Assembly (NCBI GenBank): GCA_040904565.1
Contig: JBBDTI010000008.1
Span: 1-12,236, forward strand
DNA length: 12,236 nucleotides
From: Rhodothermales bacterium
GTDB taxonomy: Bacteria; Bacteroidota; Rhodothermia; Rhodothermales; VXPQ01
Direction of reading: 5' to 3'
Positions within the stretch are counted from its first letter, which is position 1. The number at the start of each line of letters is the position of its first letter. Position numbers and translations under genes: made by a program. This document shows positions 1 through 12,236 of the stretch, piece after piece. The notes under the pieces are model-generated. The model was given only the letters and a program-made list of their open reading frames with translations, was not told where the DNA came from and did not search any database.

Positions 1-2
1 TC

Positions 3-1775
3 TGCATTATTGCTCATATCGATCATGGCAAGAGTACGCTGGCCGATCGACTCCTCGAAGTGACGGGAACCGTTACGGATCGGGACATGCAGGAGCAGGT
101 GCTCGACAGCATGGACCTAGAACGCGAGCGCGGCATCACGATTAAGAGCCATGCCGTTCGCATGACGTACCAGGCCGAGGACGGCGAGGAGTACGTGCTG
201 AATCTGATCGATACGCCGGGGCACGTGGACTTCACGTACGAAGTGTCACGCGCGCTGAAAGCCTGCGAGGGTGCCATACTCGTCGTCGACGCGGCGCAGG
301 GTATCGAGGCGCAAACGATATCGAATTTGCATCTCGCCCTGGGGCACGACCTCGAGATCATCCCCGTGGTGAATAAGGTCGATCTCCCGAATGCCCGTCC
401 CGACGTCGTGGCCCAGTCGATCGAAGACCTGATTGGCGAGCCGGCGGAAGACGTCATCCAGATGAGTGCCAAGACGGGCGCAGGTATCGACCGCCTTCTG
501 GAAGATCTTGTGCGCCGCGTGCCGCCCCCGAAGGGAGATCCGGAGGCACCCCTGAAGGCCCTGATTTTCGACTCTGTATTCAATCAGTATCGCGGCTCGA
601 TCGTGTACGCGCGGCTTTTCGACGGCACGCTGCGGAAGGGGGATGCGATGCGCTTCATGTCCAATTACAAGGAGTACGATGCCGAAGAGATCGGATTTCT
701 TCAGCTCACGATGAAGCCGGTGAATGAACTGCGCGCCGGCGACGTGGGCTACATCATCGGTTCCGTCAAGGACGTGCACGATACGCGGGTCGGTGATACG
801 ATTACGCTGGCATCGAATCCGGCAGATGAACCCATCAAGGGATTCAGAGAGGTCAAGCCGATGGTCTTCAGCGGCGTGTATCCAACCGACGCCGACGATT
901 TCGAAGATCTCCGTTCATCGCTGGAGAAACTTCAGCTGAACGACGCCGCGCTTACATACGAGCCCGAGACTTCCGCCGCGCTCGGGTTCGGTTTTCGTAT
1001 CGGCTTTCTTGGATTGCTCCATATGGAGATCATTCAGGAACGTCTCGACCGAGAATTCGGGCTGGATATCATAACGACGGTGCCGAACGTTAAATATGAG
1101 GTCGTGCGGAGCGACGGCACGAAGGTCATCGTGGACAATCCGAACAGCATGCCGAAACGCGGCGGCATCGAACGCGTCCGAGAGCCGTTCGTCAAGGCAG
1201 AGATTATCACGCCGAGTGATTACATCGGCAACCTGATGCAGCTGTGTCAGGATCGGCGCGGCGTGTACGTAAATCAGTCGTATCTGGACACCGAACGCGT
1301 CAATTTGCATTACGAGCTTCCGCTCGCCGAAATTGTGTTCGACTTTTACGACAAGTTGAAAAGCCTCAGTCGCGGATATGCCTCGTTCGACTACGAGTTT
1401 ATCGACTACCGGGAGAGCGACCTGGTTAAGCTCGACATTCTGATCAATGGGGATGCCGTCGATGCGCTATCGACCATCGTACACCGCGACAAGGCGTACG
1501 ACATGGGGCGAAAATTGACGCTGAAGCTCAAGGAACTCATCCCCCAGCAGATGTTCGAGGTGGCCCTCCAGGCTTCGATCGGCAACAAGGTAATCGCCCG
1601 TGAGACCGTCCGCGCCATGCGCAAGGACGTTACGGCCAAGTGCTACGGGGGCGACGTTTCACGCAAACGCAAACTGCTCGAGAAGCAGAAGGAGGGAAAG
1701 AAGCGAATGAAACAGGTGGGCAAGGTCGAGGTACCCCAGGAGGCCTTCCTCGCCGTGCTTTCCATGGAGGACTGA
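3..1775 (+). CDS. lepA: Elongation factor 4 (LepA), 5'-truncated by the window edge
   Basis: The frame is open from position 3 ([20 protein letters not shown]1/P-loop), upstream of the ORF-track start at 60. It contains RGITIK (G2), DTPGH (G3), NKVD (G4), [14 protein letters not shown] and the LepA-specific C-terminus [25 protein letters not shown]. Stop TGA at 1773-1775. Confidence 0.99.
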
Positions 1776-1784
1776 GACGGACAC

Positions 1785-2600
1785 GTGGTGCGAAACGACT
1801 TCCACATAGGTGCCGCCGCAGCGCTGGTTGCGATCGCCTGCACGGGTTTTCTGATCCGGCCGGCGCAGTCTCAGTCGCTGGTGGAAATGTACAGATCGGC
1901 TCGGTTTCAGGCGCAGGTAGAGCGCATCTTCGAGCGGTACGGCGTTCGAGCCGAGCCGCGTCCTCTCCAATCTCTTCCATACGTCAGCGAATCTGTCCGG
2001 AGGCAGATGGCTGTGATATACCCGCCACCGGCTGTGGAACCGCCGCCGGTCGAAGAGCCGTCGATTCGAATCGAGAAGACGAGCCTGACGCCGAGGCTCG
2101 GGGCCGGCTGGTTCGAGCGCGAATTCGCGGAAACGCAGTGGTCGTTTATCGGCAGCAACACGTTCGACGCCATCGATACCACGTACACCAGGGACCTTCG
2201 TGCCATGCTCGAAGCGCACTTTGGTTCGCCGACCCGCACGATTGCGGATATTTCCGATACAGACGATGAATCCCGCGAATATATCCAGTTTCAGTACTGG
2301 TTTGTGCTGAACGATACGATTCCGGTTAAAGTGATGGACGTCAACGGGACTTTCGAGCGGGGCGTCGTGGTCGCTACCGATCAGTCCTACAGAAATGTGC
2401 TCCCCGACCTGAAGGCGGCGCTGCTTCAACCCGCGTTAAATGGCGGACGGCGTGCGCCGTACGTCGATTACTATTATCTGATGGAGCAGGGGATGTGGTT
2501 TCTTACTGGATTCGACGGAGAACGCTTTTTCGTGGATCGTATATCCCGTCCGAACCTGCGGCAGGGACGCCCGCGTATCGAGGACGTCCGGACCCCGTAA
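1785..2600 (+). CDS. Exported hypothetical protein (Sec/SPI signal peptide, Pro-rich linker, unknown C-terminal domain)
   Basis: 271-aa ORF filling the lepA-lepB gap on the same strand, with GTG 9 bp after the lepA stop (alternative GTG at 1788). Hydrophobic N-terminus IGAAAALVAIACTGFLI is followed by RPAQS|Q, then a YPPPAVEPPPVEEP linker and a globular-looking remainder. Confidence 0.85.
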   Translation: MVRNDFHIGAAAALVAIACTGFLIRPAQSQSLVEMYRSARFQAQVERIFERYGVRAEPRPLQSLPYVSESVRRQMAVIYPPPAVEPPPVEEPSIRIEKTSLTPRLGAGWFEREFAETQWSFIGSNTFDAIDTTYTRDLRAMLEAHFGSPTRTIADISDTDDESREYIQFQYWFVLNDTIPVKVMDVNGTFERGVVVATDQSYRNVLPDLKAALLQPALNGGRRAPYVDYYYLMEQGMWFLTGFDGERFFVDRISRPNLRQGRPRIEDVRTP

Positions 2601-2626
2601 CGTATCTATACTGAACGGATTTCATT

Positions 2627-3742
2627 TTGGCTGGATTGAGAGGGAGCAAGAAAGGGCGCCGGGGATCGGACGATCGCCTCGCTCGCATGTCGGCGGGAAA
2701 ATCAGACGGGAAGGAGGAGCCGAAGCCGAAGGGCGCGATACGCGAATGGACGGATGCCTTTGTATTCGTCCTGGTCGTCATGCTGATCGTGCGGACGCTG
2801 ATCTTCGATCTCTTCCGCATTCCCACCCCGTCGATGGAGAAGAGTCTCTTGATCGGGGATTATCTCTTCGTATCGAAGGTGCATTACGGCACGCGGACTC
2901 CAATGACTCTCGGGATTCCGTTCACACAGATCTACGTACCGGGGCTGCGCTTTCCGGAGCTCCGCCTTCCGGGCTTTACGGAGGTGGCACGGGGAGACGC
3001 GATCGTGTTCAATTTCCCTCCGGAAAACAGGCCGATCGATCGGAAGATGCATTACATCAAACGCGTCGTCGGGTTGCCCGGCGAGACGCTGGAGGTGGTG
3101 GACAAGGTCGTCCACGTGGATGGGGAGACCCTACCGCTGCGGGAAGACATGCAGCAGTACTGGAACGTTCACAAGAACGACCCGAGAGTGGCGCTTTCCG
3201 GTTCGGCCCTCCGGGATCTCGGTGTGTCCGACGTGCAGACGACGTCGGATCCGACCGTCGTGCGCGTGTTGTCGACCCCGGGCGCCATGCGCGAAATCGA
3301 GTCCTGGCCGTGGGTTGAGGACGTCGCACCGTACATCGCTCCCGACAACGTGGGATACAGTGCTCTAATGTACCCGCCGGGCCGCGGTTTTACTCCGGAC
3401 AACTACGGGCCGATACATATCCCGGAGGCCGGAGAGGTCGTCCAGCTGTCGGACGTAAACTGGCCCGTGTATGAGACCGTCATTACGAGATATGAGGGCC
3501 ACGCCGCCACGCGGCGAGATGACGGCGGCTTCGAGATCGACGGCCGGGCGGTAACGACGTATACGTTCGAGCAGGACTATTATTTTGTGATGGGTGATAA
3601 CCGCGACAATTCGGAGGACAGCCGCTTCTGGGGGTTCGTTCCCATGGATCACGTCGTAGGGAAGGCCTTGATGATTTATTTTTCCTGGGATGGTGAGGCC
3701 ATGCTCCCACGCTTCGGCAGGCTTTTCCACGTCATCGATTAG
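2627..3742 (+). CDS. lepB: Signal peptidase I (S26A), copy 1
   Basis: TM segment AFVFVLVVMLIV; box B IPTPSMEKSL (catalytic Ser codon 2831-2833); box C RGDAIVF; box D HYIKRVVGLPG (Lys codon 3059-3061); box E MGDNRDNSEDSRFWGFVP. Start uncertain: TTG 2627 or ATG 2687. Confidence 0.97.
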   Translation: MAGLRGSKKGRRGSDDRLARMSAGKSDGKEEPKPKGAIREWTDAFVFVLVVMLIVRTLIFDLFRIPTPSMEKSLLIGDYLFVSKVHYGTRTPMTLGIPFTQIYVPGLRFPELRLPGFTEVARGDAIVFNFPPENRPIDRKMHYIKRVVGLPGETLEVVDKVVHVDGETLPLREDMQQYWNVHKNDPRVALSGSALRDLGVSDVQTTSDPTVVRVLSTPGAMREIESWPWVEDVAPYIAPDNVGYSALMYPPGRGFTPDNYGPIHIPEAGEVVQLSDVNWPVYETVITRYEGHAATRRDDGGFEIDGRAVTTYTFEQDYYFVMGDNRDNSEDSRFWGFVPMDHVVGKALMIYFSWDGEAMLPRFGRLFHVID

Positions 3743-3749
3743 CCGCAGT

Positions 3750-3755
3750 GGAGGT
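3750..3755 (+). promoter_or_regulatory. Shine-Dalgarno sequence for the second lepB
   Basis: GGAGGT ends 8 nt before TTG 3764, supporting that start. Confidence 0.55.
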
Positions 3756-3763
3756 CTTGCCGC

Positions 3764-4858
3764 TTGTTCTACCGTCGAACCACATCCCCTGGAGGTGTCG
3801 CCTCGCGCGCGGAATCCGGACCCAGCATCGATGCCGGGAAGAAGCCGCGCGTCTCGCTCCGAGACTGGCTGCTGACCATCGTCATTGCCCTCAGCGCCGC
3901 GATGATCATACGCGGCTTCTTCATCGAGGCCTTCCGGATCCCTACGTCGTCGATGGAAAAGACGTTGCTTGCCGGCGACTTCGTGGTGGTTTCGAAGCTG
4001 CGCTACGGGCCGCGCCTTCCGCTTACGGTAGGTCTCCCATTTCTCAATCTGTACGTTCCCGGTGTGGAATTGCCCGGCGGACGCCTGCCCGGATTTCAGG
4101 ATCCGAATAGGGGTGACGTCATCGTCTTCAACTTCCCGAAGGAGGACGCACCCATCGGGCGCAAAACGCACTACATCAAGCGCATTGTCGGCCTGCCCGG
4201 TGACACGCTGTCGATCGTCGACAAGGTACCCTACGTCAATGGAAGGAGCGTGCCGCTGGCGGATGATATGCAGCAGAAATGGCTGGCGATCCGCAGGACG
4301 TCTCGGACATTTCCGATCGATCGACTCGTTGATGCAGGCGCAGAAGAGATCGGCCGGGTTGGAGAGCAGCTGGACGGGGTGGCGTTCCAGTCTACCGTCG
4401 CCCTGGCGCAGGAAGTCGGTGGATGGTCAGAGATTGAGTCCGTTCAACCGCTCGTCACGCCGAGGAACGCCGCGCGGGCCGGTGTCGTCTTCCCGGAAGG
4501 TGCCGGCCACGTTCCGGATAACTACGGCCCGCTTCACGTGCCCGCCCGCGGAGACAGCGTCCGATTGACGCGTGTCAACGTGCCGGCATATCGAGACGTC
4601 GTGGAACGGTACGAAGGGCACGATCTTGCCGTGCTCGGAGACGAAGTTTTCGTCGATGGCGAACCGGCCGCGACGTACGTCGTCGAGAAGGATTATTTCT
4701 TCGTGATGGGGGACAACCGGGACAGCTCGTTCGATAGTCGTATCTGGGGCTTCGTACCCTGGGATCACGTCGTCGGTAAGGCGACGCTCATCTATTTTTC
4801 CTGGGATCGAACGGGAAAGCGGCCGAGGTATGACCGACTGTTCACGCCGATCCGGTAA
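3764..4858 (+). CDS. lepB: Signal peptidase I (S26A), copy 2
   Basis: TM segment WLLTIVIALSAAMII; IPTSSMEKTL (Ser codon 3950-3952); RGDVIVF; HYIKRIVGLPG; MGDNRDSSFDSRIWGFVP. Collinear with copy 1 along its whole length. Confidence 0.97.
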   Translation: MFYRRTTSPGGVASRAESGPSIDAGKKPRVSLRDWLLTIVIALSAAMIIRGFFIEAFRIPTSSMEKTLLAGDFVVVSKLRYGPRLPLTVGLPFLNLYVPGVELPGGRLPGFQDPNRGDVIVFNFPKEDAPIGRKTHYIKRIVGLPGDTLSIVDKVPYVNGRSVPLADDMQQKWLAIRRTSRTFPIDRLVDAGAEEIGRVGEQLDGVAFQSTVALAQEVGGWSEIESVQPLVTPRNAARAGVVFPEGAGHVPDNYGPLHVPARGDSVRLTRVNVPAYRDVVERYEGHDLAVLGDEVFVDGEPAATYVVEKDYFFVMGDNRDSSFDSRIWGFVPWDHVVGKATLIYFSWDRTGKRPRYDRLFTPIR

Positions 4859-4983
4859 CTGGGACCCAGCCTTCCGACACGCGGTGCGCCAGACCGCACG
4901 CGCGAGGTCGACATGGTCCTTCGAACGGGCAACGCCGACCTGGCCTCAGCACCCGCCCTATTAAAACGTCCGTCGCCCTGCCC

Positions 4984-5970
4984 TTATCGAGATGCGCGAA
5001 GATGGTCGAATCGTTCCTGCTGGTCGGTTCCGGGCGGTACGTCGTAGGGATGATCCGGCAGTTCGACCCTATTCGGGACCGGATGCCGGTCCTCGAACTC
5101 GAATGGAATGGGATCGCCATTCGGATCTTCACCGAGCACGAGAACCGTCGTACCGAGTTCCTCGATCGGGCTGCCGATCGAGCCAATGTCTACGCGCCCG
5201 TTCGCTACTGTCCAGGGGTCAGCCCAATCGTAAATCCATCGCGCGTCGATGTCCACGAGACGAACGCATCCGTGGCTCGTAGGTCCTCCCGTGGGCATGG
5301 GATATTGGTGGATATGAATGCCCCTCGGGTTGTGGAAGTTGAACACCCAGTACATCTCCCAGCGTTCGCCGGGCGGACTCAGGGAGGAGACGCGGTACTC
5401 CGTCTTCCAGTTGAAGTTGAATCGCCCCGTCGGTGTCGGACTTGTCTCGGCCCCGGTATTCACGATGCCCCAGCGGGTCAGCTCTCCGTGTTCATAGGCG
5501 GCCCAGGCCTGAATGGTCTTGTGAATGATGAACAGCTTGTCGAATTCGCGTGCGCCTAGATAGTGTCGCGGGAACGGGGAGTACGCGCGAAAGTCCAGGT
5601 CGTACGTGTCAGGTATAACCAGCGTGTCGCCGATTTCTACGTTTCCCATCAGGCGCCGGTTCAGCAGCTCGACCAGCTTCGAGCGTTCCCGCCCCACCTC
5701 GGAATCTCCTCCACCGATGATCTTATAAAATGTGTTGCGTGCCAGCACGGTATTGGTTCGTCCGTCGCCAATCACGAAATAGCCGTAGGATACGTCCGGC
5801 AACGCGTCGAGGTCGTCGACTCGGTTCTGGAACAGGACGTTTTCGACCTCCGTCTGATTGACGTACGATTGTGCGGCCACGACCTGAGCCGTTAGGGCGA
5901 GTACGGCGGACAAGAGAAGAGGTTGGATAGAAGCCGTCGGGTTTATCATTCCGCGTATTAGGTTCCCCAC
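4984..5970 (-). CDS. L,D-transpeptidase (YkuD/ErfK family), exported
   Basis: VNTG..TSPTPTGRF followed by the catalytic signature GIHIH-x9-SHGCVRL. Signal peptide LLLSAVLALTAQVVAA|Q. Start is GTG 5970 or ATG 5949. Confidence 0.92.
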   Translation of the reverse strand: MGNLIRGMINPTASIQPLLLSAVLALTAQVVAAQSYVNQTEVENVLFQNRVDDLDALPDVSYGYFVIGDGRTNTVLARNTFYKIIGGGDSEVGRERSKLVELLNRRLMGNVEIGDTLVIPDTYDLDFRAYSPFPRHYLGAREFDKLFIIHKTIQAWAAYEHGELTRWGIVNTGAETSPTPTGRFNFNWKTEYRVSSLSPPGERWEMYWVFNFHNPRGIHIHQYPMPTGGPTSHGCVRLVDIDARWIYDWADPWTVANGRVDIGSIGSPIEELGTTVLVLGEDPNGDPIPFEFEDRHPVPNRVELPDHPYDVPPGTDQQERFDHLRASR

Positions 5971-6071
5971 TGGGGGGCCTCATTGGATTGAAGGCTGGAG
6001 TGCGCGGGAGCGTGTGGCGAAAGCAGCCGCGGCGGACGACGCGTCACGTGTCCGGGTGAACGAGGGAACCA

Positions 6072-6596
6072 TCACGTGGCCGGCTCGGCGAGGCGAAAGG
6101 CACGCGCGTGCCAGGTGTTTGCAGCCGCCTGCTCAAATTTGTCTTCTCGAAGGTCTGCAAGCGACTGGATGTTCAGGTCGAATACGCGGGTATCCGGGCC
6201 TACGTCGCCGGAACGCACGAGGCTCCGAAAATCCGACCGCGAAACGGATCGAATCCCGCCGTTCTCGTCTCGATAGTGAACGGTAAGCGCAGGTGACCAG
6301 TCGAAAGGCAACTCGTTGCTCGCCTTTTCCAGCGCGTGGACCGATGCGTCGATACCGCAGCCGGAGATGTCGCCTTCGACGATTCTGCCTGCGATCACGG
6401 CGAAACGTCCTTCCAGCACGTCGGCTGCGCTTTCCACCGGTCTGCCGTGCGACATCCAGGACGCACAGAAATCATTTAGTATTTCGGCGACCCGCTTCTC
6501 TTGCAGATCGTTCAGGTCTCGATCCGCGGCATAAACCCAGATACGAGCCTCATCGGGCAGATCCCGCAGCGGGTCGGGCATGTTCGGATCAGTCAT
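6072..6596 (-). CDS. Conserved hypothetical protein (Bacteroidota family I recall being labelled 'ABC transporter ATPase'; no ATPase motifs visible)
   Basis: Motifs LPDEARIWVY, WMSHG, SGCGIDASV, TRVFD and TWHARAF match my recollection of this ~160-170 aa family. The ATG at 6596 overlaps the xseB stop (ATGACTGA). Alternative ATG at 6581. Confidence 0.85.
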   Translation of the reverse strand: MTDPNMPDPLRDLPDEARIWVYAADRDLNDLQEKRVAEILNDFCASWMSHGRPVESAADVLEGRFAVIAGRIVEGDISGCGIDASVHALEKASNELPFDWSPALTVHYRDENGGIRSVSRSDFRSLVRSGDVGPDTRVFDLNIQSLADLREDKFEQAAANTWHARAFRLAEPAT

Positions 6597-6807
6597 TCGG
6601 GAGGGAAAGTTGTTGGATTCGCAGTTCGGCCTTTTCGAGACGGTTCATGCAGAACCTGGCCAGCGCAATTCCTTCGGCGTGAGCCTCAAGAGCTTCTTCC
6701 AGGGCGAAGCCGTCGCTCTCGAGTGTCTCGACGATCTCTTCCAGTCGCTCTACGGCCTGCTCGAACGTCAGGTCCTCCGGCAACTCATATGTGGATTCAT
6801 CCGGCAT
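6589..6807 (-). CDS. xseB: Exodeoxyribonuclease VII small subunit
   Basis: 72 aa with LTFEQAVERLEEIVETLESDGFALEEAL...EGIALARFC..RLEKAELRIQQL, the XseB pattern. xseA lies nearby on the same strand. Confidence 0.95.
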   Translation of the reverse strand: MPDESTYELPEDLTFEQAVERLEEIVETLESDGFALEEALEAHAEGIALARFCMNRLEKAELRIQQLSLPND

Positions 6808-6870
6808 CGGTTCTCGCGGAATCAGTCTGGATACTCCTCCTATTCACACGCCTTCGTAATGTTTTCAACC

Positions 6871-6922
6871 GGCTGTCCTTGATGACGGTCAGCCAAACTA
6901 CGTCCTTGGAAGGACCGTAGCC
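6871..6922. repeat. Two adjacent related imperfect inverted repeats
   Basis: GGCTGTCCTTGATGACGGTCAGCC (6871-6894) and CTACGTCCTTGGAAGGACCGTAG(CC) (6898-6922). Both share GTCCTTG...GACnGT(C)AGCC. Confidence 0.5.
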
Positions 6923-6982
6923 GTGAAGTGCGGCGGCCGTCGATCCCTGCTCGACCAGCGCGCGACTTCATGAACGTACCGG

Positions 6983-7114
6983 CCTGGTGCATAGGTCCTG
7001 GATTGAGGCCATGGTTTAAGATCCTGGTACGGAGTTTCTGGTCTGACGAGATGGTCTGACGAGATGGTCTGACGTTCTGGTCTCAGGTCCTGATACGGAA
7101 AACCGGTCTCAGCG
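6983..7114. repeat. Degenerate 13-bp tandem repeat, about 10 units
   Basis: Near-perfect core TGGTCTGACG at 7039, 7052 and 7065, with degenerate in-phase units on both sides (unit starts 6983, 6997, 7010, 7023, 7037, 7050, 7063, 7076, 7089, 7102). Confidence 0.8.
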
Positions 7115-7225
7115 CTCGAATTTTCGATACGGTGGACCCGCCGATACGCCAGGTCGATTATCTTTTAAAGCGCATCGAGGCATACGGTTCACCTAAAACG
7201 AATCAGAAAGGTATCGAGGCATCCC

Positions 7226-8002
7226 ATGGATCTTGGTCTGAAAAACAAAGTCGCCGTCGTGACGGGCTCTAGTCGCGGTATCGGGAAATACATCGCGGCC
7301 AGGCTGGCGGAAGAAGGCTGCAGTGTGACCGTCTGCGCGCGCAGCACCGACGATCTCGAGGAAACGGCCGCCGAACTGAGAGACGGTGGTGCCGACGTGC
7401 TGGCTCTGGAGACTGATCTGACGCGTGCGGAAGCACCGCAGGAGCTCATCGACGCGACGGTGGATCGATTCGGGCGTCTGGACATCCTCGTAAACAACGT
7501 AGGGGGAAACAGGCGGAAGCCGTTCGTCGAGACGACGGACGAGGACTGGGCCGACATTCTGGATCTGAACTTCAATTCACACATCCGATGCAGCCGCGCG
7601 GCGATCCCGTTCATGCGGGAAGCCGGGAGCGGTGCGATCGTCTTCATCTCGTCCATCTTCGGGCGGGAGGCGGGCGGACCCGGACTGTCGATCTACAACA
7701 CGACGAAGTCTGCCCTCATCAGCGTTTCCAAGATCATGGCCCTGGAGCTAGCCCCGGAAAATATTCGGGTCAACAGCGTCGCGCCGGGCTCCATCCGGTT
7801 TCCCGGCGGAAGCTGGGATCGACGCGTGCGGGAACAGCCGGATGAAATGAAGGCATTCGTGGAGCAGCACCTGCCGATCGGTCGATTCGGTAAGGCGGAG
7901 GAGGTGGCCGACGTGGTGGCCTTCCTCGTGTCGCAGCGTGCGAGCCTCGTAACCGGAGCGTGCCTGAACGTCGATGGCGGGCAATCGCACTCACTGATCT
8001 AA
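7226..8002 (+). CDS. Classical short-chain dehydrogenase/reductase (FabG-like), substrate unknown
   Basis: TGSSRGIG cofactor motif, LVNNVG, catalytic Ser in ISSI, YNTTK (YxxxK), IRVNSVAPG and TG..LNVDGG. The Arg in CARS suggests NADP(H) preference (inference). Confidence 0.96.
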   Translation: MDLGLKNKVAVVTGSSRGIGKYIAARLAEEGCSVTVCARSTDDLEETAAELRDGGADVLALETDLTRAEAPQELIDATVDRFGRLDILVNNVGGNRRKPFVETTDEDWADILDLNFNSHIRCSRAAIPFMREAGSGAIVFISSIFGREAGGPGLSIYNTTKSALISVSKIMALELAPENIRVNSVAPGSIRFPGGSWDRRVREQPDEMKAFVEQHLPIGRFGKAEEVADVVAFLVSQRASLVTGACLNVDGGQSHSLI

Positions 8003-8009
8003 CGGTAAA

Positions 8010-9086
8010 TCAGACGCAGCGTTTGAACGTGGCGTTGATGCGCCGACGGCCTGCATCCGATTTCTTCCACTGCACGAGGATGGGACTCTGGTACGTGCCC
8101 TGAATGATCTTCCCACCGGCATTGTCATCTGTTTCCGTGTCGCACACGAGAAGGCGAACGGACCGCTTCATACGCAGGAAGCGGGAGGCGGGAAAGGCAA
8201 AAAGGCGATCGATGACGCGCTCGACCAGCGACTCATTCAGCCCGAGCCGGTCCAGCACCTGGTTGACGACGTGGACGAGATCGTACTTGGCGTAGTTCTT
8301 CGCCTTACCGGGAATGGCTTTCGGGTCGCGCAGCATACTTCGGCCTTTCGCCGCAACGTGGCGCATCGGGTTCCGCAGGACGTCCACGAGATCGTGCTGC
8401 ATCAGCAGCGTCTCGTACTCGTTTACGGTTAATCCGGCATTCTGCTCGCCTGCGTCGAGGTCAAGTTCGATCCATCCCTTGTCGATGCCGGCCCTACGTA
8501 CGTGCTCCTGGAGGTGATGGTAGAGCCCGATCTCGCCGTTCTTCAAATTGATCGAATCGATGGCGTGGCCGGATACAGGCACGTCGAATTCGAATCGATC
8601 GACGACCTCGTCCTTGTTGTAGCCGACGACGGTCGATCGTCTCCGTCGCGGCCGGTCTTCCATCACACCGTCAAGATCCACGAAATAAACGGGCGTATCC
8701 GTTTCGTTCGTGTATGGGACGCAGTTCTCCAGCCCGGATCCGATGAACGTGAGGTGGGAGTCCGCATTCCGAGGCTCCGACTTCCGTTCCTCCGCCGTAA
8801 GCTCCGTTCGGAGGTGAAGTTGATCGTGATGATAATCACTGTTCGGAGGGAAAAGCTCCTGAAACGCGCGCAGCAGGATCTGAAGGGAATCCGGACTGTG
8901 ATCCAGGCGGCGAACGAGGTGCTGGTCGAAGTATCCCGCGGTGGTATGGTGCGAGCAGTAGAGCGTACGATCGTATTGATCGAGGACGTCGCCGTAATGC
9001 TCGCGAATGCGTTGCTTGATATCGATAACGTCAACGCGAGAGGAAGGCGTTACGTCAACCGTAAGTCTCGTCGTCTGGGAGCTCAT
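8010..9086 (-). CDS. Uncharacterised protein with two tandem YjbQ/UPF0047-like domains
   Basis: N-half: VIDI, HTTAG (47-51), LFPPNSDYHHD (78-88), NADSH (107-111), VYFVDLDG...PRRRRSTVVG. C-half: VRRAGIDKG, AGLTVNE (217-223), GKIIQGTYQSPILVQW...RRINAT. Confidence 0.8.
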   Translation of the reverse strand: MSSQTTRLTVDVTPSSRVDVIDIKQRIREHYGDVLDQYDRTLYCSHHTTAGYFDQHLVRRLDHSPDSLQILLRAFQELFPPNSDYHHDQLHLRTELTAEERKSEPRNADSHLTFIGSGLENCVPYTNETDTPVYFVDLDGVMEDRPRRRRSTVVGYNKDEVVDRFEFDVPVSGHAIDSINLKNGEIGLYHHLQEHVRRAGIDKGWIELDLDAGEQNAGLTVNEYETLLMQHDLVDVLRNPMRHVAAKGRSMLRDPKAIPGKAKNYAKYDLVHVVNQVLDRLGLNESLVERVIDRLFAFPASRFLRMKRSVRLLVCDTETDDNAGGKIIQGTYQSPILVQWKKSDAGRRRINATFKRCV

Positions 9087-9169
9087 AGCATGCGCATGAG
9101 GAATTGCTTCCGTCGAACAGAGGGACCGCTTTTCATACGTCGAATCACATAGTACGAATCGAGGAGGGC

Positions 9170-9194
9170 GAAGAAAAGCCGCGTACGGGGCTTC
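9170..9194 (-). terminator. Possible weak intrinsic terminator after xseA
   Basis: On the - strand, AAGCC-CCGTACGC-GGCTT runs into TTCTTC about 30 nt after the xseA stop. The stem is short. Confidence 0.35.
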
Positions 9195-9222
9195 AACGCT
9201 GGTTGACCCTCGATCGGTTGTA

Positions 9223-10467
9223 CTACGATTCGCTGCTGTCGAGTTCGAAGGCGGGTCCGTCGGCCGTCACCGGTACGCGTCCGTTCGCGAACCGAAGAAC
9301 GAGCCGGTCTCCCTCAGAGACGGCCGCCGCGTCGCGAATGATCCCGTCACCGCGTTCAACGAGGATGTAGCCGCGTTCGAGCGGGCGCGTGGGACTGAGG
9401 AGCTCAAGACGATCTCGAAGTGCCTGCACTCCGGAGCGCCGTACTTCGATACGGCGTTCCGAGGAACGGTTTAAGCGTTCTACGAGTCCGTCTACCCGCT
9501 GAACGTACTGGCGAAGCCGATCCGCGGGCCGCTTGAATCCATACGTGGAGATCAAATGACGGATGTGGCGCCGAGATTGGTCGACGTGCCTCTGGAGAGA
9601 GGTCGTGAGTACGGCCGCCCGTGCATCGAGAGCCCCGAGGATCTCTTTCCTGTCCGGTACGGCGATCTCGGCAGCCATCGACGGCGTGGCCGCGCGTCGG
9701 TCCGCGACGAAGTCGCAGATCGAGAAGTCGGTTTCGTGTCCAACAGCGCTTATGATCGGGATGCGGGAAGCATGGACGGCCCGGGCTACCACTTCTTCGT
9801 TGAAGGCCCATAGATCTTCGAGCGAGCCGCCTCCACGACCTACAATCAGTGCATCGGCGGGTCTGTCCTGGCGGTTGAACAGATCGATGGCCCGCGCGAT
9901 CTCGTCGCCGGCTCCCATCCCCTGCACCTGAACGGGGCAGACCTGCACGTCGACGCACGGGAACCGTCGTTCCAGCGTACTCAGGATGTCGTGCAAGGCC
10001 GCCCCGGTACCGGACGTGACGATGCCCAGGCGTAGGGGATACCTGGGTATCGGTCTTTTGCGCTCCCGATCGAAGAGTCCTTCGGCCGCGAGTTTGTTCT
10101 TCAATGCCTCGAATGCTTTCTGGAGGGCGCCTTCACCGGCCATCTTCATCCCACGAACGATGATCTGCAGGTCCCCCCGCGGTTCGTACACCGAGGCCGA
10201 CCCATAGGCGTGTACGAGCATGCCGTCCTGTGGATTAAACGATACGCGGCGGGCATCTCCCCTAAACATGACGCCGCGAATCTGTGCGTCTTCGTCCTTC
10301 AGCGTGAAATAGCAGTGGCCGGACGAATGCCGCTTGAAGTTGGAGAGCTCTCCCTCCACCCATACGTCGCTGAACCGGCTCTCTACCAGCTCGCGAAGGG
10401 ATCCCGTAAGGCCGCTGACGGAGAGGACTTCAGGCTCCCGAGGAGAAAAATCGAGGGAGGATTGCAT
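9223..10467 (-). CDS. xseA: Exodeoxyribonuclease VII large subunit
   Basis: OB fold (VWVEGELSNF..HSSGHCYFTLKD), GIVTSGTGAALHDI, GRGGGSLEDLWAFNEE, SAVGHETDF, DRRAATPSMAAE and LSPTRPLERGY. Start reassigned to ATG 10467 (MQSSLDF..., 414 aa) because the longer ORF overlaps the divergent phosphatase. Confidence 0.98.
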   Translation of the reverse strand: MQSSLDFSPREPEVLSVSGLTGSLRELVESRFSDVWVEGELSNFKRHSSGHCYFTLKDEDAQIRGVMFRGDARRVSFNPQDGMLVHAYGSASVYEPRGDLQIIVRGMKMAGEGALQKAFEALKNKLAAEGLFDRERKRPIPRYPLRLGIVTSGTGAALHDILSTLERRFPCVDVQVCPVQVQGMGAGDEIARAIDLFNRQDRPADALIVGRGGGSLEDLWAFNEEVVARAVHASRIPIISAVGHETDFSICDFVADRRAATPSMAAEIAVPDRKEILGALDARAAVLTTSLQRHVDQSRRHIRHLISTYGFKRPADRLRQYVQRVDGLVERLNRSSERRIEVRRSGVQALRDRLELLSPTRPLERGYILVERGDGIIRDAAAVSEGDRLVLRFANGRVPVTADGPAFELDSSES

Positions 10468-10618
10468 GCGAATTCTGGATGAGAAGGGATATTCCGGGCA
10501 CGGAGTGATATTTAAGACACGACTCATAGCGGGTCGCGTGCGGCATAGTTTCAGCAACATCGTTTCACTGTCGGAGCCGCCGTGCCGATTGTTACGCATC
10601 CATCGGAAGAGAATCATT

Positions 10619-10643
10619 CGATCTATGACTGGCGATCTATGAC
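10619..10643 (+). repeat. 11-bp direct repeat overlapping the phosphatase start codon
   Basis: CGATCTATGAC at 10619-10629 and 10633-10643. Confidence 0.75.
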
Positions 10644-11142
10644 GGATAGAAAGATACGGATCATGTTCGTTTGTCTGGGTAACATCTGCCGCAGTCCGCT
10701 CGCAGAATATCTTTTCCGGAGGCACGTCGAAGAGGCGGGGATGAACGCCGAGTTCGACGTCCGATCCTCCGGCACGGGAGACTGGCACGTCGGTCAGGGA
10801 GCCGACACGCGAATGCGGACGAAGGCTGCCGAATACGGTGTTTCACTGGACGGGCACCGTGCCAGCCAGTTCGATCGGACCGACCTTGACGAGTTCGATT
10901 ATATCTTCGCGATGGACAAGAACAACCTGCACGACGTTCTGTACCTCGATCGGGAGGACGAACACGGGAACAAGGTGCGGCTCTTCAGGGAATTCGATCC
11001 GGAGCCGGAGGATTACCAGGTACCCGATCCGTATCACGGCGGAGCCCGTGGATTCGAGAACGTGTATCAGATCGTGGATCGTACCGTGGAGATGCTCCTG
11101 GCGCGGCTCGTTGAGGAGCACGATCTGACACCAGCGGAGTGA
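10639..11142 (+). CDS. Low-molecular-weight protein-tyrosine phosphatase
   Basis: P-loop FVCLGNICRSPLAE, SSGTGDWHVG, FDYIFAMD and general-acid loop VPDPYHG. Start taken as ATG 10639 (MTDRKIRIMF), since the P-loop sits near the N-terminus in this family. Confidence 0.96.
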   Translation: MTDRKIRIMFVCLGNICRSPLAEYLFRRHVEEAGMNAEFDVRSSGTGDWHVGQGADTRMRTKAAEYGVSLDGHRASQFDRTDLDEFDYIFAMDKNNLHDVLYLDREDEHGNKVRLFREFDPEPEDYQVPDPYHGGARGFENVYQIVDRTVEMLLARLVEEHDLTPAE

Positions 11143-12011
11143 TGCTGCCGCCGGACGTCGCCTCGGCCATCGAACTGCATCTCGACGCGTCCGTCGTACG
11201 CACGCAGGCTGTAGGCGGCGGCTGCATCTCGCACGCCACACGCGTGGATACGGACCGGTGCTCCGTGTTCGTCAAGTGGAGCAGGAAGGAGGCCGCTGCT
11301 ACGTTTCCCGCGGAGGCTGCCGGATTACGGGCCCTCCGTGATGCCGACGGCGGCCTCATCGTTCCCGAGCCGCTCGTCGCGCGGGGTGGGTCCGACGCGT
11401 CATGCGGATTTCTCGTGCTCGAGTGGATCGAAACCGGCGAACGTGCGGCAGAATATTGGGAAACGCTCGGTGCCGGTCTTGCAGCGCTGCATCGGAGAAC
11501 CGCCTCGCAGTACGGTTTCGAGCAGGACAATTTTATCGGCCGCCTGCCCCAGAACAACGATTGGAGTGCGTCGTGGCCGGACTTCTTCCGTTCGAGGCGC
11601 CTCGAGGTTCAGGTGCGCCGAGCCCGGGAGGGTGGGCACTGGAACGAAAGCTGGAACGGACCGATGGACCGGCTCATGAACCGGCTGGACGAGCTGCTTC
11701 CGGCGTCACCACCGCCGTCGATGCTGCACGGCGATCTGTGGAGTGGAAACATTATGGTGACCGATCGAGGCGCGCCGGCGCTCATCGATCCGGCCGCCTA
11801 TTACGGTCACCGCGAAGCCGATCTGGCCATGTCGGAACTTTTCGGCGGATTCTCGTCGACGTTCTTCCAGGCTTACAGGGAAGCATGGCCCCTGGAATCG
11901 GGTTATTACGAACGGCGCCAGGTATATAACCTGTATCACCTCATCAATCACCTTAACCACTTTGGCTCGGGATATGCCGGGTCCGTGGCGCGCGTGCTCG
12001 AAGGATTTTGA
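11142..12011 (+). CDS. Fructosamine/ketosamine-3-kinase family protein
   Basis: GGGCIS Gly-loop, FVK, AEAAGLRAL, LHGDLWSGN, IDPAAYYGHREADLAMSELFGGF and YNLYHLINHLNHFGSGY. The start overlaps the phosphatase stop (GTGATG; GTG 11139 or ATG 11142). Confidence 0.96.
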   Translation: MLPPDVASAIELHLDASVVRTQAVGGGCISHATRVDTDRCSVFVKWSRKEAAATFPAEAAGLRALRDADGGLIVPEPLVARGGSDASCGFLVLEWIETGERAAEYWETLGAGLAALHRRTASQYGFEQDNFIGRLPQNNDWSASWPDFFRSRRLEVQVRRAREGGHWNESWNGPMDRLMNRLDELLPASPPPSMLHGDLWSGNIMVTDRGAPALIDPAAYYGHREADLAMSELFGGFSSTFFQAYREAWPLESGYYERRQVYNLYHLINHLNHFGSGYAGSVARVLEGF

Positions 12012-12068
12012 GGCACCGGGCAGGCTTAGCTCGCCTCCCGCGGATTATCGCCTCCGGGGCGCACGAAG

Positions 12069-12236
12069 CTAGTCGATCTTGAACGGAGAATCCGGTCGGT
12101 CTTCGTGCCGTATCTCGTCGACCGGACCGTGTTTGTTCTCTCCAGCATAGAGCCGGTTGGGGCAGTTGACGATCAACGCGTCGTCGTCACCCACGTTGCG
12201 ATAGGCATGTACGACGCGGGGTGGCACGATGAGGGC
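12069..12236 (-). CDS. C-terminal part of an RmlC-like cupin (dTDP-4-dehydrorhamnose 3,5-epimerase-like), cut by the window edge
   Basis: Not in the ORF track. Manual translation gives ALIVPPRVVHAYRNVGDDDALIVNCPNRLYAGENKHGPVDEIRHEDRPDSPFKID* (TAG at 12071-12069), containing cupin motif 2 (PPxVxHxYxN). Confidence 0.8.
   Translation of the reverse strand, partial: ALIVPPRVVHAYRNVGDDDALIVNCPNRLYAGENKHGPVDEIRHEDRPDSPFKID

Follow-up and report, generated by a model that had tools for sequence, protein, structure and literature searches.

Members of the YjbQ/UPF0047 family (PF01894, TIGR00149) are small proteins of about 130-150 amino acids (aa), about 138-147 in the paralogues and solved members considered here, in which a single domain carries the family's whole set of conserved residues. 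Structures of single-domain members are available under nine entries (1VMF, 1VMH, 1VMJ, 1VPH, 1VE0, 1XBF, 2CU5, 2P6C, and 2P6H). Available excerpts of the literature describe one of them, BH3498 (1VMF), as a highly compact homotrimer with large 'heterologous interfaces', a 50-kDa cross-linked trimer having been confirmed in the same chemistry paper (PMC10857811). Complementation of thiamin auxotrophy has been reported for single-domain YjbQ (excerpt of PMC3020362), and yjbQ is said to have 'no clear function' in the excerpted text of a 2026 preprint. This article describes a two-domain relative of 358 aa, encoded at positions 8010-9086 on the minus strand of a 12,236-nucleotide stretch of DNA from a Rhodothermales bacterium (assembly GCA_040904565.1, contig JBBDTI010000008.1, positions 1 to 12,236; the whole stretch is referred to below as the window). 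Both halves of this protein carry the YjbQ fold, and the gene product is probably a single-chain stand-in for two neighbouring subunits of the YjbQ trimer, with one composite pocket at the joint between its domains.

The closest described case of such an arrangement lies in an unrelated protein. In the excerpts available, the monomeric dUTPase of alpha- and gammaherpesviruses has roughly double the size of the homotrimeric form and reportedly originated by gene duplication; it has a single catalytic site, composed of motifs that come from different subunits in the trimer (PMC8961515). The structure of the Epstein-Barr virus enzyme (Tarbouriech 2005) is cited here as summarised in that source.

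The gene forms one open frame within positions 8010-9086 of the window, as judged from the list of open reading frames (ORFs) and the translation. It begins with an ATG at 9086, a start that is consistent with the N-termini of its homologues, and ends with the stop codon at 8010-8012. A plus-strand reading of the same interval was rejected, being riddled with stops. An initial annotation had described a 358-aa protein at these coordinates without giving the strand; its length and ORF stand, the frame is that of the minus strand, and the residue numbers it assigned to the motifs are all correct on the translation. No promoter or terminator signal above that of shuffled sequences was found in a scan of positions 7800-9400, and a look-up of RNA runs listed none containing this DNA.

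An AlphaFold2 model was built on an alignment, A2, of 42 homologues with 27-76% identity to the query, and has a mean predicted local distance difference test score (pLDDT) of 88.6 and a predicted template modelling score of 0.86. When the model was compared with known structures by VIA-align, the nine solved YjbQ entries were the sole strong matches (Z 12.1-13.8, with 118-129 aligned of 121-139 residues), and the next unrelated fold followed at Z 5.7. The entries fall on both halves of the protein. Four of them (1vmf, 1vmh, 2cu5, and 2p6c) align to aa 3-158 with Z 12.1-12.7, and the other five (2p6h, 1vph, 1ve0, 1xbf, and 1vmj) align to aa 158-357 with Z 12.2-13.8. In the best match of each half, aa 4-158 superimpose on 1vmf_A (Z 12.7, root-mean-square deviation 3.3, 127 of 136 residues aligned) and aa 162-357 on 2p6h_A (Z 13.8, root-mean-square deviation 2.6, 124 of 134 residues aligned). 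Foldseek matches at ranks 1-15 were likewise all drawn from the same nine entries, with E-values from 1.3e-07 to 3.1e-05. The protein can thus be divided into domain 1 (aa 1-158; 8613..9086, minus strand), which has the YjbQ fold and retains the His-bearing half of the family's conserved residues, and domain 2 (aa 159-358; 8013..8612, minus strand), which has the same fold with an enlarged helical middle and bears the Asn-Glu, Asp, and Gly-x-Tyr-Gln half.

Comparison of profiles gives the same result. Against a reference of 32 single-domain YjbQ sequences cut from genomes of the window's phylum, hhalign returned a probability of 96.1% (E 2.9e-09) for domain 1 and 95.2% (E 2.5e-08) for domain 2, so that each half on its own matches the YjbQ fold by structure and by profile, as the initial annotation had supposed. 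The A2 profile also matches 1vmf with positions 7-53 and 1vph with positions 186-236 and 321-352. The relationship lies at the edge of what standard models detect. PF01894 scores 22.9 bits over aa 45-142, under its cut-off of 27, and 18 bits with the first half alone, a subthreshold match that agrees with the assignment of domain 1; TIGR00149 scores 18.9 bits against a cut-off of 67.75; and the second half (aa 159-358) has no Pfam match at E ≤ 1. Among the 42 two-domain family members, 18 match PF01894 at E ≤ 0.001 (best 1.3e-06), and a phmmer search of the protein against PDB sequences gave no match at E ≤ 10, the PDB being reached by the family profile alone. Both halves carry the YjbQ/UPF0047 fold, and the protein is a two-domain YjbQ protein that belongs, by fold and profile, to a distinct, unnamed subfamily of the YjbQ superfamily.

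The two halves had originally been described as repeats. Compared directly with each other, domains 1 and 2 reach an hhalign probability of only 0.2%, and they therefore cannot be called sequence repeats; they are related solely via the single-domain family and the fold. The protein may have originated by duplication or by the joining of two paralogues that had diverged beforehand. When the halves were compared with subtypes of the single-domain proteins, domain 1 scored best with subtypes C (94.9%) and B (88.7%) and domain 2 with the type of L002, one of the paralogues in the source genome (82.5%); all of these subtype scores are weak, and naming a single-domain parent subtype for either half was dropped.

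What distinguishes the two-domain protein from its single-domain relatives is the distribution of the conserved residues, which are split over its two domains and gathered in one domain in the relatives. Positions conserved in at least 26 of the 32 single-domain proteins were carried onto the two domains via profile alignments, with numbering according to the source genome's other paralogue, L001, and conservation was counted over the 42 homologues of alignment A2. The family's first His (H45) corresponds to H47 in domain 1 (42/42) and to E214 in domain 2 (31/42), whereas N53 corresponds to Q55 in domain 1 (23/42) and N222 in domain 2 (42/42). D63 is variable in domain 1 and is represented by D232 in domain 2 (42/42), and P73 is P80 in domain 1 (42/42) and A245 in domain 2 (19/42). 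The two later His residues, H81 and H92, are H87 and H111 in domain 1 (both 42/42) and are lost in domain 2, where the alignment of the remodelled middle is unreliable and these two losses carry less weight. G114, W116, and Q117 of the family's G-x-W-Q motif are variable in domain 1 and appear in domain 2 as G330 (42/42), Y332 (41/42), and Q333 (41/42). Two further positions are less one-sided, with E123 represented by D137 (D or E) in domain 1 and Q339 in domain 2, and R131 by R147 (42/42) and R348 (38/42). Domain 1 thus retains H, A, P, H, H, D/E, and R and is without N, D, and G-x-W-Q, whereas domain 2 retains A, N, E, D, G-x-Y-Q, and R and is without all three His and the Pro. The full conserved set (H..A....N[ED], D, P, H, H, G-x-W-Q, E, R) is present in neither domain, and the two halves together supply every conserved polar position of the YjbQ family.

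In domain 1, the His residues lie in three motifs evident in the translation and the conservation, all encoded on the minus strand: HTTAG (H47-G51; 8934..8948), whose residues 46-48 take part in the modelled joint discussed below, and YHHD (Y85-D88; 8823..8834) and NADSH (N107-H111; 8754..8768), both of which also contribute modelled pairs. A DLDG motif follows at residues 137-140 of the translation and is succeeded by R147 and R149. In domain 2, the motif AGLTVNEYE (A217-E225, with AGLTVNE at 217-223; 8412..8438, minus strand) is conserved and situated at the modelled joint, and E214, three residues ahead of it, stands in for the first His of the family. D232 (8391..8393, minus strand), supported by mapping, conservation, and modelled pairs, is the counterpart of the invariant Asp of single-domain YjbQ, and GTYQSP (G330-P335, with GTYQ at 330-333; 8082..8099, minus strand) is, by translation and mapping, that of the family's G-x-W-Q. 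Between these last two lies the helical middle of domain 2 (aa 226-305; 8172..8411, minus strand), a segment of 80 residues that occupies the place of the two later His motifs of single-domain YjbQ and of domain 1. It is delimited by the AlphaFold2 model, which places helices at 226-238, 242-253, 262-281, 285-296, and 300-303, and by conservation, with mean column values of 0.57-0.89 per block of ten residues across the full-length homologues.

The pattern extends well beyond alignment A2. From 270 fetched proteins, 151 full-length homologues of 335-420 aa were kept, and shorter and longer ones were excluded. H47 is present in 148 of these 151, and H87 and H111 in 149 each; N222, E223, E225, L228, and D232 are each present in all 151, and G330, Y332, and Q333 in 149, 144, and 148, respectively. 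The retained residues of domain 2 (144-151 of 151) are more conserved than the rest of that domain. The reciprocal loss of motifs put forward by the initial annotation is thus near-invariant among homologues, and it is wider than had been noticed, since it also involves the Asp at D232 and the Pro at P80.

Three homologues (P0149, P0173, and P0191) account for those without the His residues, and two of them, P0173 and P0191, begin inside the query. P0191 (372 aa) has a reverse-transcriptase domain (PF00078, 83.6 bits, aa 29-241) in frame with the last ~140 residues of a domain 2, which could result from insertion of a retroelement into the gene or from chimeric assembly. Among 11 short or long cluster representatives that were read, no convincing split form consisting of a stand-alone domain 1 or domain 2 was found; one of these is a chimera and another has an internal deletion, and the rest are fragments that lack a start Met or frames that decay past a shift. 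In P0207 (180 aa), domain 1 is followed directly by the final ~30 residues of domain 2 (G-T-Y-Q-S-P-I-L-V-Q-W...), with the greater part of domain 2 gone and the His motifs degraded (H-P-T-A, K-A-D-V-H); the gene may be decaying, or the sequence may be an assembly artefact.

The spatial relation of the two sets of residues was addressed with a two-chain model, in which aa 1-158 and aa 159-358 were supplied as separate chains, each with A2, together with a Zn ion. The interaction prediction score from aligned errors (ipSAE) was 0.91, 0.91, and 0.90 in three runs, and 0.00 in the best of three controls. Of 157 solved complexes used for calibration, 116 reach the mark set for this score, as do 2 of 215 mismatched pairs; the calibration is only roughly valid here, because a custom alignment was supplied and a Zn ion included. 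The runs agree in at least 85% of contacts, with a partner pLDDT of 75. On the domain 1 side, the interface includes residues 46-48, 83-87, 108-109, 111-112, and 114-118, and on the domain 2 side residues 220-223, 225-228, 231-233, 243-245, 328-330, and 332-333. Pairs with the least predicted error include H87-D232, H86-D232, H111-N222, H111-D232, T48-N222, and H87-E225. In all, H87 is paired with D232, L228, L227, H231, and E225, H111 with N222, L228, D232, and L233, and D232 with Y85, H86, H87, A108, H111, and L112, while H47, Y332, and Q333 are likewise at the modelled joint. The residues of domain 2 involved in the 25 listed least-error pairs are N222, E225, L227, L228, H231, D232, and L233.

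The positions at which each domain has lost the family residue show the opposite tendency. All five of those in domain 1 (55, 70, 128, 130, and 131) are absent from the interface list, as are 214, 254, and 265 in domain 2, where A245 alone is present. Because the lost positions lie outside the interface, save A245, the joint is head-to-tail: in the model, the retained His face of domain 1 is packed on the Asn/Asp/Tyr-Gln face of domain 2, and the decayed faces point away. A head-to-tail joint of this kind fits what would be expected if the two domains represent neighbouring subunits of a cyclic trimer.

From these observations, a mechanism can be proposed. Domain 1 would keep only the His face of the family (H47, P80, H87, and H111) and domain 2 only the opposite face (N222, E223, D232, G330, Y332, and Q333). 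The two retained faces would pack head-to-tail against each other, and thus one composite pocket per chain, at the domain joint, would replace the three equivalent pockets that may lie between the subunits of the homotrimer. This pocket would be the working site, in which the three His residues would bind a divalent metal and the Asn, Asp, Glu, Tyr, and Gln of domain 2 would complete the metal site. The helical middle of domain 2 would serve as a lid or fill the empty third position, and the enzyme would act on a small, probably phosphorylated metabolite, unlike the substrate of the single-domain paralogues. The parent YjbQ is a homotrimer (excerpts of PMC10857811), whereas a two-domain head-to-tail chain cannot close a three-membered ring alone. 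A more specific proposal, which is rather doubtful at present, is that the protein corresponds to two thirds of a YjbQ trimer in one chain with a single asymmetric catalytic pocket, the third position being filled by its own 80-residue helical insert or by a single-domain paralogue.

The comparison with the herpesvirus enzyme bears on the same proposal. As in the monomeric dUTPase, the protein has about double the parental length and contains the parent fold twice in a single chain, and the parent's motifs are divided between the halves without overlap. The divided motifs meet at a joint in the model only (ipSAE 0.91 vs 0.00; T48, H87, and H111 with N222, E225, and D232), whereas the site and activity of the herpesvirus dUTPase have been measured. 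The two systems also differ in fold, chemistry, and host, and the origin by duplication reported for the dUTPase is matched here by either duplication or paralogue fusion. With these differences in mind, one composite site per chain, on the dUTPase principle, would fit the protein.

Several points weigh against a composite site of this kind. The AlphaFold2 model is weak at aa 250-300, where pLDDT falls to 49-57. The likeness to a between-subunit joint rests on the interface list and reasoning. According to its own warning, the tool used for the complex may give a passing score because it has memorised solved structures, and YjbQ trimers have been solved. The place of the Zn ion in the model is not reported, so that metal binding stays putative. 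E223, which the initial annotation had expected to join the His cluster from the other domain, is in the interface list but not in the listed pairs with His; the His residues are predicted to be joined with the N222/E225/D232 region (ipSAE 0.91). Finally, gene neighbourhoods at 70 loci, described below, reveal no conserved pathway. On balance, the composite site is a prediction that models and conservation largely support.

The loss of all three His residues from domain 2 and the remodelling of its helical middle would also agree with an unlikely alternative, in which domain 1 alone is the working site and domain 2 is a decayed structural or regulatory pseudo-enzyme domain whose conserved residues merely hold the joint. 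The His residues meet several hydrophobic partners at the joint (L227, L228, and L233), as in a purely structural contact. However, the polar residues that domain 2 retains, N222, D232, Y332, and Q333, correspond to residues invariant in single-domain YjbQ (N53, D63, W116, and Q117), they stand above the rest of the domain in conservation across the 151 homologues, and in the model the retained residues contact T48, H87, and H111.

Less probable again is a higher-order assembly in which three chains form two stacked rings, one of three copies of domain 1 and one of three copies of domain 2, like a dimer of YjbQ trimers, with separate homotypic sites that might be, for example, catalytic and regulatory. 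Single-domain YjbQ is trimeric (excerpts of PMC10857811), and the solved entry 1vph has six chains in the crystal. In a ring of domain 1 only, however, the His face would be set on a face without N, D, and G-x-W-Q, and in a ring of domain 2 only the reverse would hold; as each homotypic ring would pair a kept with a lost face, the strict conservation of both half-sets would be hard to explain. In the two-chain model, moreover, the His face of domain 1 and the N/D/YQ face of domain 2 pack against each other, with the scores of 0.91 vs 0.00 given above.

Relatives of the protein are numerous. Of 8000 candidates scored in a word-seeded search, 4799 proteins matched at E ≤ 0.001, and the 120 homologues listed are 339-418 aa in length and 54-80% identical to the query, bearing the names 'hypothetical protein' (NCBI) or 'thiamine phosphate synthase YjbQ (UPF0047 family)' (JGI). 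An exhaustive search of cluster representatives yielded 443 clusters at E ≤ 0.001 and 118 at E ≤ 1e-30, and in a one-genome-per-species collection a relative is encoded by at least 546 stretches (546 of 599 that were pattern-matched). Among the best 80 loci, labelled by counting from record titles, 49 are Rhodothermales, Salinibacter, Salinivenus, or Bacteroidota-type and 18 are Acidobacteriota-type, with one each from Eiseniibacteriota, Gemmatimonadaceae, KSB1, NC10, and 'Ca. Coneutiohabitans' and 8 without a phylum label. In an even sample of the window's phylum, the two-domain family is present in 6 of 101 genomes, with one copy each. All 6 carriers belong to the window's own order, being the source genome and 5 of the 7 other genomes of the order. 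All 6 two-domain carriers are among the 58 of these 101 genomes in which single-domain PF01894 genes occur.

The source genome itself has two single-domain YjbQ genes, L001 and L002 (131.8 and 109 bits to PF01894), as well as a gene of the ThiE type (190.3 bits). The cell therefore has other YjbQ genes and does not need the two-domain protein as a thiamin-phosphate synthase, so that this protein adds a function and does not replace one. The second paralogue (L002:1489-1905 on contig C64; 138 aa) is without the family's first His and Asn, reading G-S-T-G...I-E-F-E vs H-T-T-A...N-E elsewhere, and retains the two later His residues and G-T-W-Q, so that partial decay of the site has occurred in single-domain members also.

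Within the window, the gene is flanked by genes of varied function. Downstream of it, and convergent with it, is a gene for a short-chain dehydrogenase/reductase (SDR) oxidoreductase (7226-8002, plus strand), preceded by a gene for a 174-aa protein without a Pfam or NCBIfam match (6072-6596, minus strand), relatives of which lie two to three genes from the target in 20 of 70 loci, and by one for a YkuD-type L,D-transpeptidase (4984-5970, minus strand). The start of the window carries lepA (3-1775, plus strand) and two genes for S26 signal peptidases (Peptidase_S26, signal peptidase I) of 371 aa (2627-3742, plus strand) and 364 aa (3764-4858, plus strand), these two adjacent paralogues being directly downstream of lepA and a 271-aa ORF without a family match. 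Upstream of the target, xseA lies 136 nucleotides away on the same strand (9223 to about 10500, minus strand). The longest frame of xseA (9223-10788, minus strand; 521 aa) overlaps a phosphatase gene on the other strand, and its real start is probably near 10420-10500, because the TIGR00237 match begins at residue 27 of the 425-aa reading from 10500. The low-molecular-weight phosphatase gene (10582-11142, plus strand) is followed by one for a fructosamine kinase (11139-12011, plus strand).

Neighbourhoods were compared across 70 loci, which remained of 82 with a tblastn match after 12 without a target ORF by a simple ORF caller were dropped. Within three genes of the target, an SDR gene occurs at 36 of these loci and xseA at 24. 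The SDR gene is the immediate downstream neighbour, on the opposite strand, at 34 loci, and xseA the immediate upstream neighbour, on the target's strand, at 23. These neighbours are found mostly in Rhodothermales-like loci and vary across the 22 Acidobacteriota-type and other loci, and therefore no pathway can be named. Some Acidobacteriota-type loci have neighbours of nicotinamide adenine dinucleotide (NAD) synthesis, namely NadC and a NadB-like flavoprotein in L081 (6068-8889) and NadA and an NrtR-type regulator in L082 (2595-4759), or NUDIX or NUDIX-metallo-beta-lactamase neighbours (L016:3417-4913, L020:1668-2312, and L025:3069-4739); these are too few to name a pathway.

The want of a metabolic operon around the gene, together with the unclear primary function of the whole YjbQ family (again the 'no clear function' of the excerpted 2026 preprint) and the report of a weak side activity only, the thiamin auxotrophy complementation in the excerpt of PMC3020362, would suit a protein that senses or carries a small molecule or metal and employs the composite pocket for binding without catalysis, but such a role is improbable, as Pfam and NCBIfam scans of the protein found no DNA-binding, signalling, or transport domain and a three-His cluster with Asn, Asp, Glu, Tyr, and Gln conserved across phyla would be more typical of catalysis.

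No description of a two-domain YjbQ was found in the literature, as judged by listings, titles, and abstracts, and the protein is a new form of the known YjbQ/UPF0047 family. That family spans bacteria, archaea, and eukaryotes and is represented by the nine solved structures found here, yet its function is called unclear in the excerpted preprint. The two-domain family is large, is mostly named 'hypothetical protein', and has a second half that Pfam does not recognise. Exactly one copy of each conserved position has been retained by evolution in this family, which therefore reveals the residues that must act together, and the models predict that these residues meet across a subunit-type joint. 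If the protein does prove to be two thirds of a trimer in one chain, it would be a new enzyme with its own substrate and a natural dissection of how the residues of the UPF0047 site cooperate across a subunit joint, offering a direct route to the chemistry of the family. The reduction of three equivalent sites to one asymmetric site per chain would make mutation, ligand crystallisation, and screening easier, and cultured hosts exist among the Salinibacter and Salinivenus records. By analogy with the herpesvirus dUTPase, the two-domain YjbQ may also provide a clean case, in bacteria, of an oligomeric protein turned into a single chain.

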